A stretch of DNA of 6,915 nt from a virus (IMGVR_UViG_2713896896_000002:1-6915); one strand, 5' to 3'; numbered from the stretch's first letter, positions 4,499 to 6,296 are shown. Translations and numbers: made by a program. Notes: generated by a model from the sequence alone, not told the origin.

Positions 4499-4903
4499 AC
4501 TGAATTAACAAAAGAGCAATTAATCGAAGAAGCTAAATTAAAAATAGCGATTGCGAAATGCCACCCCAATTCAGGGGTGGCACGAGTAGAGGGTGAGTTA
4601 TTCAAAATTGCTCTGGCATCGCTGGAAGCAGAGCCGATAGCGTGGGAATACGGCGAAAACATAATCCTGTTTAATCCTGACACAGTTGAAGCATACGCAA
4701 AACGTGCAGAGATAACACCTAAACCTCTATTCACCGCTACACCTGTGTCACTGACACCAGAAGGATTGATTAAAGCAGTGCGTTTCTATGAACAGGTTAA
4801 GCGTGAAAATCCGCCAGTCGAAACCGGAGCATGGAAAGACGCGGTTGACTGGGTGCTCAAAGAGGCCTGTCGTGCAGCCATGCTTAAGGGAGATAAATCA
4901 TGA
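4496..4903 (+). CDS. Hypothetical protein (135 aa)
   Basis: Clean ORF. Its stop overlaps the next start in an ATGA arrangement (4900-4903). Preceded by a 158-bp AT-rich intergenic region and the structured leader. No family recognised. Confidence 0.65.
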   Translation: MTELTKEQLIEEAKLKIAIAKCHPNSGVARVEGELFKIALASLEAEPIAWEYGENIILFNPDTVEAYAKRAEITPKPLFTATPVSLTPEGLIKAVRFYEQVKRENPPVETGAWKDAVDWVLKEACRAAMLKGDKS

Positions 4904-5247
4904 TTAATCGAACCAAACTGGAGCACATCCTTGAGTATGCCTGGCAGCAGAGGCATTTGGGTCAGCACTGTAAAATTCCACCAGGAGATATGGTTGAAAT
5001 CGTGGAGATTGCCATGCGTAAGACTGGCAACTCTCCGGTAACTTCGGGCGGTTGGATAAGCTGTAGTGAGCGAATGCCAGGTGATGGTCAGCACGTAATT
5101 ATTTTATGTGATGGCGCATTCGTTCTTCATGCGCAATATCGAGACGGTGAGTTTTTCGATATTGTCCGCAATGGTAATGAATTTTTTGAAACACAGAGCC
5201 GCAATGTAACCGACTGGATGCCGCTACCAGAACCACGAAGGAGGTGA
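4900..5247 (+). CDS. DUF551-like phage protein (115 aa)
   Basis: C-terminal pattern GGWISCSERMPGDGQHVIILC...DGEFFDIV...VTDWMPLPEP matches my recollection of the DUF551 signature (W..P....V.....g....DWMPLPEP). Start overlaps the upstream stop, suggesting translational coupling. Confidence 0.65.
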   Translation: MINRTKLEHILEYAWQQRHLGQHCKIPPGDMVEIVEIAMRKTGNSPVTSGGWISCSERMPGDGQHVIILCDGAFVLHAQYRDGEFFDIVRNGNEFFETQSRNVTDWMPLPEPRRR

Positions 5248-5251
5248 ATCA

Positions 5252-5323
5252 ATGAGCTGGCCTGAGGCATTCACAACAGTAGGTATTGTACTGGCGGTGT
5301 ATTCGATTTGCCGCTGGGGGTAA
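5252..5323 (+). CDS. Small ORF, 23 aa, predicted single-pass hydrophobic peptide (MSWPEAFTTVGIVLAVYSICRWG)
   Basis: Not in the ORF track. Near-perfect SD AAGGAGGTGA (5238-5247) with 7-nt spacing to ATG 5252; stop TAA 5321-5323. It sits directly after the DUF551 gene in the same orientation. Confidence 0.5.
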   Translation: MSWPEAFTTVGIVLAVYSICRWG

Positions 5324-5329
5324 GGTATT

Positions 5330-5373
5330 AAAAAACGCCCCGCACACATAAGTTGGGCGCCTGAGATGCGGGG
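5330..5373 (-). terminator. Putative intrinsic terminator oriented for leftward (minus-strand) transcription
   Basis: 7-bp GC-rich stem CCCCGCA (5338-5344) / TGCGGGG (5367-5373). On the minus strand the stem is followed by CG then TTTTTT (complement of A-run 5330-5335). The loop is long (22 nt) and may fold further. There is no T-run after it on the plus strand. Confidence 0.4.
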
Positions 5374-5484
5374 ATAGGGAGTTGGTTAAATAGTTATACA
5401 ACAATACTTGATTTTGCATTGAAGCAAGGAGGAGATTGCCACATATTGAATCATGCACGTGTACGTCAAATGTGGGAGGTCATC

Positions 5485-5574
5485 GTGCTGGTTCTGAAAT
5501 GTGCGCTGGCTATTGCGGCTGTAATGGCAATTTATTGTCTTGTTATTGTTCTTATGAATCACCTCTCTGATTGA
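5485..5574 (+). CDS. Small ORF, 29 aa, very hydrophobic peptide (MLVLKCALAIAAVMAIYCLVIVLMNHLSD); candidate small membrane toxin-like peptide
   Basis: Not in the ORF track. SD GGGAGG (5474-5479) is 5 nt upstream of GTG 5485; an in-frame ATG at 5470 without SD would give 34 aa. Stop TGA 5572-5574. Composition resembles type I toxin peptides (single TM helix, short polar tail). Confidence 0.45.
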   Translation: MLVLKCALAIAAVMAIYCLVIVLMNHLSD

Positions 5575-5581
5575 TTTTATA

Positions 5582-5610
5582 TTGGCGAGGTGACGTGAGT
5601 TAAGTAGAAT
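5582..5610 (+). promoter_or_regulatory. Putative hok mRNA promoter: -35 TTGGCG (5582-5587), 17-bp spacer, -10 TAGAAT (5605-5610)
   Basis: Sigma70-like elements positioned so that transcription would start near 5617, at the GGGTGCTTGAGGC element typical of hok-family mRNA 5' ends. Confidence 0.5.
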
Positions 5611-5659
5611 TGCTGCGGGTGCTTGAGGCTATCTGTCTCAGGCATGAACACCAAAAGGC

Positions 5660-5750
5660 AGATAGAGAAAAGCCCCAGTTAACATTACGCGTCTTGCAGG
5701 ACGCTTAACATTAATCTGAGGCTCAATCCATGCTGAACACATGTAGGTTA
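5660..5750 (-). ncRNA. Expected position of a Sok-like antisense RNA overlapping the hok leader / mok-like start (boundaries not resolved)
   Basis: Inferred from the hok-family architecture. Candidate minus-strand promoter: -35 TTGCCT (complement of 5768-5773), -10 TAACCT (complement of 5745-5750). I could not identify a clean terminator, so the extent is approximate. Confidence 0.3.
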
Positions 5751-5786
5751 GCCTCTTACGTGCCGAAAGGCAAGGAGAAGCAGGCT

Positions 5787-5942
5787 ATGAAGCAGCAAAA
5801 GGCGATGTTAGTCGCCCTGATCGTCATCTGTTTAACCGTCATTGTTACGGCACTGGTAACGAGGAAAGACCTCTGCGAGGTACGAATCCGAACCGGTCAG
5901 ACGGAGGTCGCTGTCTTCACAGCTTACGAACCTGAGGAGTAA
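5787..5942 (+). CDS. hokD: Hok/Gef-family type I toxin (51 aa), closest in my recollection to HokD (RelF)
   Basis: MKQQKAMLVALIVICLTVIVTALVTRKDLCEVRIRTGQTEVAVFTAYEPEE carries the Hok signature (TM helix then RKDLCEVRIRTGQTEVAVFTAYE). SD AAGGAGAAG at 5772-5780. An in-frame upstream ATG at 5730 (track ORF 5730-5942) may play a mok-like coupling role. Confidence 0.85.
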   Translation: MKQQKAMLVALIVICLTVIVTALVTRKDLCEVRIRTGQTEVAVFTAYEPEE

Positions 5943-5950
5943 GAGACCAG

Positions 5951-6005
5951 GCGAGGGAGAAATCCCTCGCCACCTCTGATGAGTCAGGCATCCTCAACGC
6001 ACCCG
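5951..6005 (+). other. hok mRNA 3' structures: hairpin GCGAGGGA-GAAA-TCCCTCGC (5951-5970) and fbi-like element CCTCAACGCACCC (5993-6005) complementary to the mRNA 5' end (5617-5628)
   Basis: The 3' element is the reverse complement of GGGTGCTTGAGG at the predicted 5' end, with one bulged base. This is the hallmark 5'-3' closure of full-length hok mRNAs. The hairpin is a perfect 8-bp stem with GAAA loop. Confidence 0.6.
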
Positions 6006-6296
6006 CACTTACAACCGATGGCGCACGATACCAAATTATACAATTCTGATGATTCTGCCGTCTTTGCCAGCAGGCGCGGACGGTGTTTTCACGCATTCAA
6101 ATCTGACTGGTACCAGCATCCCCCATGCACTGAAGAACAGGCCGAATGGATAATTCAGTGTTACCGCAGGCGCGGATGCGAGGTTAAAAAAGCCCTTAGC
6201 CTCGACTACCGTCACTGGATAATCTCCGTCAGGCTCCCTTACTCCGAACGGCCGCCGCGTCCGTCCCGCACATTCCAGCAACGGATCTGGAGGTAA
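5979..6296 (+). CDS. Hypothetical protein, possibly Rem-like (Qin-prophage position between hokD and ydfU); 105 aa, or 92 aa from ATG 6018
   Basis: ORF with plausible protein-like composition (FKSDWYQHPPCTEEQAEWIIQCYRRRGCEVKK). Gene order matches hokD-rem-ydfU as I recall for E. coli K-12 Qin. No SD for either candidate start; the 5979 start would lie inside the hok mRNA 3' end. Confidence 0.5.
   Translation: MSQASSTHPHLQPMAHDTKLYNSDDSAVFASRRGRCFHAFKSDWYQHPPCTEEQAEWIIQCYRRRGCEVKKALSLDYRHWIISVRLPYSERPPRPSRTFQQRIWR

Follow-up and report, generated by a model that had tools for sequence, protein, structure and literature searches.

[quoted passage not shown] In the relBEF operon of the Qin prophage of Escherichia coli K-12, hokD/relF is the distal cistron of a longer message that starts upstream. 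Described hok loci (R1 parB; hokW-sokW of Sp5/933W; hokD) possess the three components hok, mok and sok and no upstream peptide gene, whereas at the locus considered here a gene for a 29-amino-acid (aa) peptide is added, which is physically part of the locus and is followed by a canonical hok leader. An upstream peptide is unmentioned in the passages retrieved from a 2026 survey of Hok (bioRxiv 10.1101/2025.08.07.668861), from the hokW paper (PMC8621323) and from the hok and icsP literature, and the peptide sequence was not found in the literature searched; the 29-aa peptide gene beside hok appears undescribed. The peptide resembles Hok in being small, in its predicted single membrane pass and in its occurrence on prophages and plasmids, but shares no sequence similarity with it, as BLASTP against the Hok protein encoded next to it gave no alignment and PF01848 did not match.

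The analysis concerns a window of 6,915 nucleotides of viral DNA (the whole stretch IMGVR_UViG_2713896896_000002:1-6915), for which an original prediction had proposed a candidate second type I toxin-like module upstream of hok, in a layout as in tisB/istR or zorO/orzO. The tisB/istR-1, zorO/orzO, dinQ/agrB and shoB/ohsC systems are indeed similar with respect to peptide size (about 29 aa), comparable hydrophobicity and an unannotated intergenic site. The present locus differs from them in that no complementary sequence was found nearby, in that there is no long structured 5′ untranslated region, no LexA box by sequence reading and no homology, and in that the candidate terminator is not conserved together with the ORF. 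The ibs/sib and ldr/rdl loci likewise have a very hydrophobic short ORF, and at the present locus a minus-strand promoter-like site just beyond the stop codon could yield a fully overlapping antisense RNA, but here the antisense promoter is poorly conserved, the terminator is absent in most flank types and no Rfam family matches; in addition, ibs/sib and ldr/rdl are tandem repeats of one unit, in contrast to the present pairing with a toxin of another kind.

Genes for small inner-membrane proteins are often missed by annotation. KdpF (29 aa), MgtS, AcrZ and YohP resemble the peptide in size and likewise have one hydrophobic helix, a short leader of the ordinary kind and a normal Shine–Dalgarno sequence, but are chromosomal partners of specific transporters or kinases, whereas the 29-aa peptide is found on mobile elements and tied to a toxin locus. 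The relBEF operon provides a precedent for hokD as a downstream cistron, with the difference that in K-12 Qin relB and relE stand upstream and take the place of the region, so that Qin lacks the 29-aa ORF. As Qin, the sole K-12 site checked, is without the ORF, data sets from K-12 probably do not cover the gene. On balance we favour, with some confidence, the reading that the ORF encodes an undescribed hok-associated 29-aa membrane peptide that is probably co-transcribed with hok and is not an independent type I toxin.

The window covers part of a lambdoid prophage, namely its immunity, replication and early-right region, with a repressor-like gene on the minus strand and a rightward order of cro/cII-like, O-like and DnaC-like genes, DUF1627, DUF977, DUF551 (4900-5247) and later DUF968. 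The hok locus sits between DUF551 and DUF968 (Table 1). Its Rfam leader, which matches at 118.9 bits (gathering score 59, E 2e-27), directly follows the peptide ORF, in agreement with the predicted position upstream of hok. The hok promoter, the −10 hexamer of which is kept in all 73 unique hok-linked sequences, ends 7 nt upstream of the leader 5′ end as defined by Rfam. The equivalents of the mok/hok gene in relatives are annotated hokD or MokW-like, and PF01848 matches the hok-equivalent genes in the related loci L250, L252 and L253. As there is no obvious intrinsic terminator 3′ of hok, read-through into downstream phage genes is suggested. Two observations concern the 3′ side of hok. A 105-aa ORF (5979-6296) starts within the part of the hok mRNA that is expected to fold back from the 3′ side, and the sequence CCTCAACGCACCC at 5990-6002 complements GGGTGC-TTGAGG, the 5′ end of this mRNA.

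Table 1. Coordinates of features around the 29-aa ORF, counted from the first nucleotide of the window.
Feature	Position	Strand	Remark
23-aa ORF, MSWPEAFTTVGIVLAVYSICRWG	5252..5323	+	12-nt-deleted (4-codon) copy of a 27-aa small membrane ORF family
Weak terminator-like hairpin with U6	5330..5373	−	Fold −14 kcal/mol; outside the conserved 29-aa module
Putative −35 hexamer TTGAAG, sigma-70-type	5419..5424	+	TTGAA[G/T] conserved in most divergent flanks
Putative −10 hexamer CATATT	5442..5447	+	Nearly invariant in nine representatives
Leader motif GTGTACGTCAAAT	5459..5471	+	Nearly invariant while surrounding bases vary
Shine–Dalgarno sequence GGGAGG, 5 nt before GTG	5474..5479	+	GGAGG or GGAGA in nearly all versions
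29-aa membrane-peptide gene, GTG start, TGA stop, product MLVLKCALAIAAVMAIYCLVIVLMNHLSD	5485..5574	+	Conserved coding frame
hok promoter TTGGCG-17-TAGAAT	5582..5610	+	9/12 consensus match
hok mRNA leader and Sok-target region	5617..5792	+	Rfam RF01794, full-length model match
mok/hok reading frame, 70 aa from ATG 5730	5730..5942	+	From the ORF list
Hok proper, 51 aa	5787..5942	+	hok CDS within the mok/hok frame

Coding evidence and distribution of the 29-aa ORF

The hydrophobic peptide with a strong Shine–Dalgarno sequence is encoded where it had been predicted. It forms one very hydrophobic helix that ends in a short acidic tail, has a GRAVY value of 1.95 (1.89 for KdpF) and reaches 2.84 in its best 19-residue window, which equals or exceeds those of IbsC, TisB, ZorO and KdpF. 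Type I toxin-like size and composition, with 29 residues and a hydrophobicity comparable to TisB, ZorO and Ibs, are thus borne out.

Around 110 related loci, gathered from E. coli genomes, phages, plasmids and IMG/VR, provided 37 distinct DNA versions of the ORF. Exactly 29 codons are present in 35 of these, the two non-intact versions being one with a 2-nt deletion and one without a stop codon. In the main set, the 22 codons considered (leaving out the 18 bases that served as search anchor) have 10, 7 and 18 variable sites at codon positions 1, 2 and 3, respectively, and pN/pS is 0.33, the lowest value among the six frames. Six divergent members show pN/pS of 0.20-0.61 and pS up to 0.81, with synonymous changes located in the codons for the invariant Y, C and L residues. 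Compared with the ORF, the flanks have diverged much more rapidly, while the Shine–Dalgarno sequence and the start codon stay in place; GTG is almost universal as start codon and is replaced by ATG at the same position in Shigella pINV. Homologues at about 50% amino-acid identity (MSDDISLAMEGALAVVAVVGVYCLVVFLMDRLGN, MLAALKGFVAILAVVAIYCLVVVLMDRLSD and MLIIKGVLAIVIVVAIYCLVVTLWERLSD) extend the family, and distant homologues retain the common core A(I/V)YCLV..LM(D/E)RL(S/G)(D/N). In the only clearly decayed, frameshifted copy (L097), the frame, the Shine–Dalgarno sequence, the −35 and the −10 are all lost together.

The ORF, being conserved as a coding frame, is far beyond chance, and the amino-acid-level conservation in relatives on which the original prediction depended is found. 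Start codon, Shine–Dalgarno sequence and frame are conserved under purifying selection and together constitute the evolutionary signature of translation; on this comparative evidence, the 29-codon frame is a real gene under purifying selection. That the conservation would instead reflect regulatory DNA upstream of the hok promoter, with an incidental open frame, has very little probability. The 3′ end of the ORF does abut the hok −35 and RefSeq does not call the ORF, but variation follows the codon positions with pN/pS lowest in the ORF frame, the exact length persists, a GTG is exchanged for an ATG with Shine–Dalgarno sequence and start otherwise conserved, the homologues at about 50% identity carry many synonymous changes, and the ORF is kept where hok is lost.

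The conserved block is present in 2501 of 5426 complete E. coli genomes (~46%). Among 143 matching plasmid records, 124 are from Shigella, mostly pINV. A profile search of 1.84 billion representative proteins retrieved only 17 clusters. A scan of genome contigs with an 18-base degenerate AT-rich pattern gave almost only chance matches in unrelated phyla, and one match in E. albertii that was too near the contig end for use. As far as these searches reach, the peptide family is confined to mobile elements of Escherichia and Shigella.

On the virulence plasmid pWR100 of S. flexneri M90T (2501-2590 of the extracted locus L006) the 29-aa ORF is intact, with an ATG start, the Shine–Dalgarno sequence AGGAGG and a TTGAGT-17-CATATT hexamer pair. 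The ORF is located ~290-380 nt upstream of the start codon of icsP (icsP CDS at 2881 of the same locus) and is followed by a truncated remnant of the hok leader, of which only a stump is left ~290 nt upstream of icsP. The ORF region on pINV belongs to the much-studied upstream regulatory DNA of icsP.

With respect to annotation, RefSeq has no feature at the position of the ORF in four related genomes, so that the ORF is unannotated there as the original prediction had stated; older GenBank records, for example that of REL606, label it 'membrane protein' or 'conserved hypothetical protein'. The 29-aa peptide had no match in Pfam at E up to 10, PF01848 included, nor in PHROGs, and NCBIfam returned only sub-threshold transmembrane noise (13.9-16.4 bits at a cutoff of 116 and 12.4 bits at a cutoff of 240.95). 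In phage HannyBb (2478-2767 of locus L002), the deposited annotation consists of two hypothetical minus-strand CDSs across the peptide ORF and the hok promoter; located on the strand opposite to the conserved ORF, these are probably gene-caller artefacts.

Promoter, leader and antisense candidates

A TTGAA[G/T] hexamer is separated from CATATT by always 17 nt of variable spacer sequence, and the TTGAAG/CATATT pair was found in 61 of 73 unique hok-linked sequences. The near invariance of the −10 hexamer refers to nine representatives with mutual identities <85%. With 8 of 12 consensus positions matched, the pair would place the transcription start near 5454 and leave a leader of ~30 nt; it coincides with the left edge of the shared block, as between-locus homology begins at ~5418, at the −35. 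We infer that TTGAAG-17-CATATT is the peptide gene's own sigma-70 promoter. Loci of the L250 and L252 type are without it, and there the ORF follows the preceding gene at a distance of a few tens of bases. A 14-nt direct repeat, TTGATTTT(GC/AT)ATTG, occurs at 5408-5421 and 5571-5584, 163 nt apart, with the copies just upstream of the −35 of the peptide gene and of hok; as it is seen only in window-type flanks, it may be due to chance.

Between the putative −10 and the Shine–Dalgarno sequence, nine divergent flank types share a leader motif with the consensus GT(G/A)TACGTC(A/C)AAT, for which no complementary partner was found in the window. The motif was considered as a LexA box, which was rejected because spacing and half-sites do not fit on reading the sequence. 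A long structured leader that sequesters the ribosome-binding site was not found. RNAalifold on 12 divergent sequences detected no conserved structure at the leader and translation start (−8.1 kcal/mol, 0 compensatory pairs), and single-sequence folds of the leader differ among flank types.

A leftward terminator to the left of the peptide, claimed by the original prediction, exists as a structure insofar as the minus strand forms a hairpin from the arms CCCCGCA (5338-5344) and TGCGGGG (5367-5373), followed by CG and a run of six U at 5330-5335. As a terminator it would be marginal. The loop has 20 nt, with a 5-bp stem and a 14-nt loop as the alternative fold, the minimum free energy is no better than that of shuffled sequence (z = −0.43), a standard terminator scan did not report the hairpin, and close relatives carry non-compensated changes in either arm. 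The hairpin and the T-run are limited to flank types with the 27-aa ORF discussed below; the E. coli B, DUF1971-junction and pINV types and the type commonest in IMG/VR are without them, and the region is present in only ~25 of 5426 genomes.

A leftward small RNA in the style of tisB/istR or zorO/orzO, starting within ~5393-5469, stopping at this hairpin and pairing with the peptide leader, would gain from the existence of the hairpin with its U6 run and from the lack of a conserved minus-strand protein gene to the right of it, as a 58-aa antisense ORF stays open in no more than 37 of 52 versions. However, the hairpin is weak, uncompensated in its arms and outside the conserved module, and the TATAAC (5393-5398) and TTGACG (5464-5469) hexamers that had been put forward on the minus strand do not form a conserved −35/−10 pair. 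Complementarity between the leader or translation start and ~600 nt on either side does not exceed that of shuffles, the best leader duplex energy being −36.9 versus a shuffle mean of −36.2. An inverted-repeat search detected none involving 5450-5500, and, with up to 3 mismatches allowed, the 22-mer complementary to the leader occurs at no second site. Rfam reports no family in 5330-5600 at E up to 1. With a weak hairpin limited to some flanks, no complementary RNA partner found nearby and a poorly conserved antisense promoter, the tisB/istR-like layout is rejected on the sequence evidence and we regard it as highly improbable.

A cis-antisense RNA for the 29-aa ORF is a separate possibility of low probability. 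The best minus-strand promoter candidate, TTAACT-18-TAAAAT from 5603 to 5574, matches 9 of 12 positions, occurs in 41 of 73 unique sequences and would yield a fully overlapping antisense RNA. According to this alternative, the locus is an independent type I module, in which a membrane toxin is held down by an antisense RNA that starts just past the peptide stop codon and in the window ends at the 5330-5373 hairpin. The size and hydrophobicity of the peptide, which match Ibs, TisB and ZorO, are in line with such a module, as are the almost universal combination of a weak GTG start with a strong Shine–Dalgarno sequence, the favourable placement of the promoter candidate with the window-type hairpin and U6 run ~230 nt downstream of it, and the adjacency to another type I toxin. 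Nevertheless, we consider it unlikely, as position 2 of the candidate −10 varies between A, G and C (TAAAAT, TGAAAT, TGCAAT, TGTAAT), hok-less loci with an intact ORF do not have the −35, other flank types are without a terminator-like site on the minus strand, Rfam has no match at the locus, the ~30 nt leader is without conserved structure to sequester the ribosome-binding site, and in L250- and L252-type loci the ORF is an ordinary operon member close behind the upstream gene.

Linkage to hok and a second small ORF

The hok leader follows the ORF in 93 of 105 loci with enough flank, and the three distant members examined (P0054, P0050 and P0048) are each located directly upstream of a PF01848 gene. 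The peptide stop codon is separated from the hok −35 by 7-8 nt in the window, L252 and L253 types, and a standard scan found no plus-strand terminator between 5575 and 5617. Comparison of these loci shows the physical fusion of the peptide gene to the hok promoter region. A predicted hairpin at 5558-5594 (UCACCUC...GAGGUGA) spans the peptide stop codon together with the −35 of hok and recurs in most variants; it is without a U tail, its changes are mostly one-sided, and it might affect read-through or processing. In locus L250, a perfect palindrome, CGATATGGGAATTCCCATATCG, follows the peptide homologue at 1655-1700, and the hok promoter region after the palindrome is of the 933W type (…AAACGGTTTGCGGGAAAAGGAG…) and not of the window type.

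The linkage is not absolute in either direction. The ORF is intact without hok in 11 DUF1971-junction loci and on pINV, so that the function of the peptide need not depend on hok. Many hok loci are without the peptide ORF, for example that of 933W, the homology of which to the window starts at 5597. Mosaic breakpoints at ~5418 and ~5590-5597 indicate that the peptide and hok modules can be exchanged separately. Consistent with a moron cassette are the own putative promoter and the mosaic boundaries; an own terminator was not found. The peptide could thus be a stand-alone, moron-type small membrane protein functionally unrelated to hok, for example with a role in superinfection exclusion, in the timing of lysis or in modulating a host membrane protein, with both genes being cargo at a permissive early-right spot. 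Intactness in three contexts without functional hok (two DUF1971-junction variants and pINV), the separate exchange of the modules and the promoter in most loci argue for this alternative, to which we assign a minor probability, as it has to accommodate the linkage to hok in most loci and in all three distant relatives examined, the constant stop-to-−35 spacing across divergent members and a peptide module without a terminator of its own.

A second small ORF is located upstream. The 23-aa ORF that had been noticed together with the 29-aa ORF was confirmed as a small membrane ORF and is a deleted copy of a conserved 27-aa family, M(T/S)WPEAFTTVGIAMAVALVVYSICRWG, encoded at 15 related loci with an own Shine–Dalgarno sequence at each. 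The upstream genes of the family vary and include DUF551 and other unnamed ORFs. The family (MTWPEAFTTVGIAMAVALVVYSICRWG) is represented at 1396-1479 of locus L249 (933W) and at 1434-1517 of L250; tblastn found it in 93 phage records, and existing annotation goes no further than hypothetical or 'bacteriophage protein'. In 933W the 27-aa ORF is directly upstream of hokW, and in L250 the order is 27-aa ORF, a 34-aa relative of the 29-aa peptide, and hok. The proposed A-[VI]-Y-[SC]-[IL] core is literally present in both peptides of the window, but relatedness does not follow, with no BLASTP alignment between the two families; the 27-aa family has no detectable similarity to Hok either. The 27-aa peptide was joined in one cluster with 121-aa DUF551 proteins, which looks like a clustering artefact since these proteins end in ...PLPEPPQEVNQ and do not contain the peptide.

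The reading we favour, of a hok-associated membrane peptide, would combine these observations as follows. Positions 5419-5574 would constitute a compact gene module of ~170 bp with promoter, short leader, Shine–Dalgarno sequence and ORF, the predicted product of which is a 29-residue single-pass inner-membrane peptide. The family would travel together with prophage hok loci (hokD/hokW type), on their upstream side. Transcription would start from the own TTGAAG-17-CATATT promoter or, in the promoterless variants, derive from the upstream phage operon. As no terminator separates the peptide gene from hok, we infer that the transcript runs through the hok promoter into the mok/hok message, so that the peptide would be the first cistron of an extended hok transcript. 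In the membrane, the peptide may act as a companion of Hok, either as a second membrane-active peptide or as a modulator of Hok action, and it would have no divergent or antisense small RNA of its own controlling it. A more far-reaching version, which we hold only tentatively, is that hokD/hokW-type prophage loci are larger cassettes, in which the 29-aa and/or the 27-aa MTWPEAF... peptides are encoded upstream, are co-transcribed and act with or on Hok in the membrane, where they could serve as a second toxin, apply a brake at the protein level or time Hok-assisted lysis.

Comparative sequence evidence thus points, as the main result, to a widespread unannotated small-protein gene as a regular upstream companion of prophage hok loci. 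It places an apparently undescribed gene, not annotated in RefSeq, in ~46% of complete E. coli genomes and on the Shigella virulence plasmid. Constructs with hok deletions and reporter fusions may unknowingly include or cut the peptide gene. If the peptide is toxic or modulates Hok, the interpretation and the engineering of prophage hok loci would change; even as a mere accessory, the 29-aa peptide would add a widespread small protein, and the 27-aa family a second one, to the catalogue of missing small proteins of pathogenic E. coli and Shigella.
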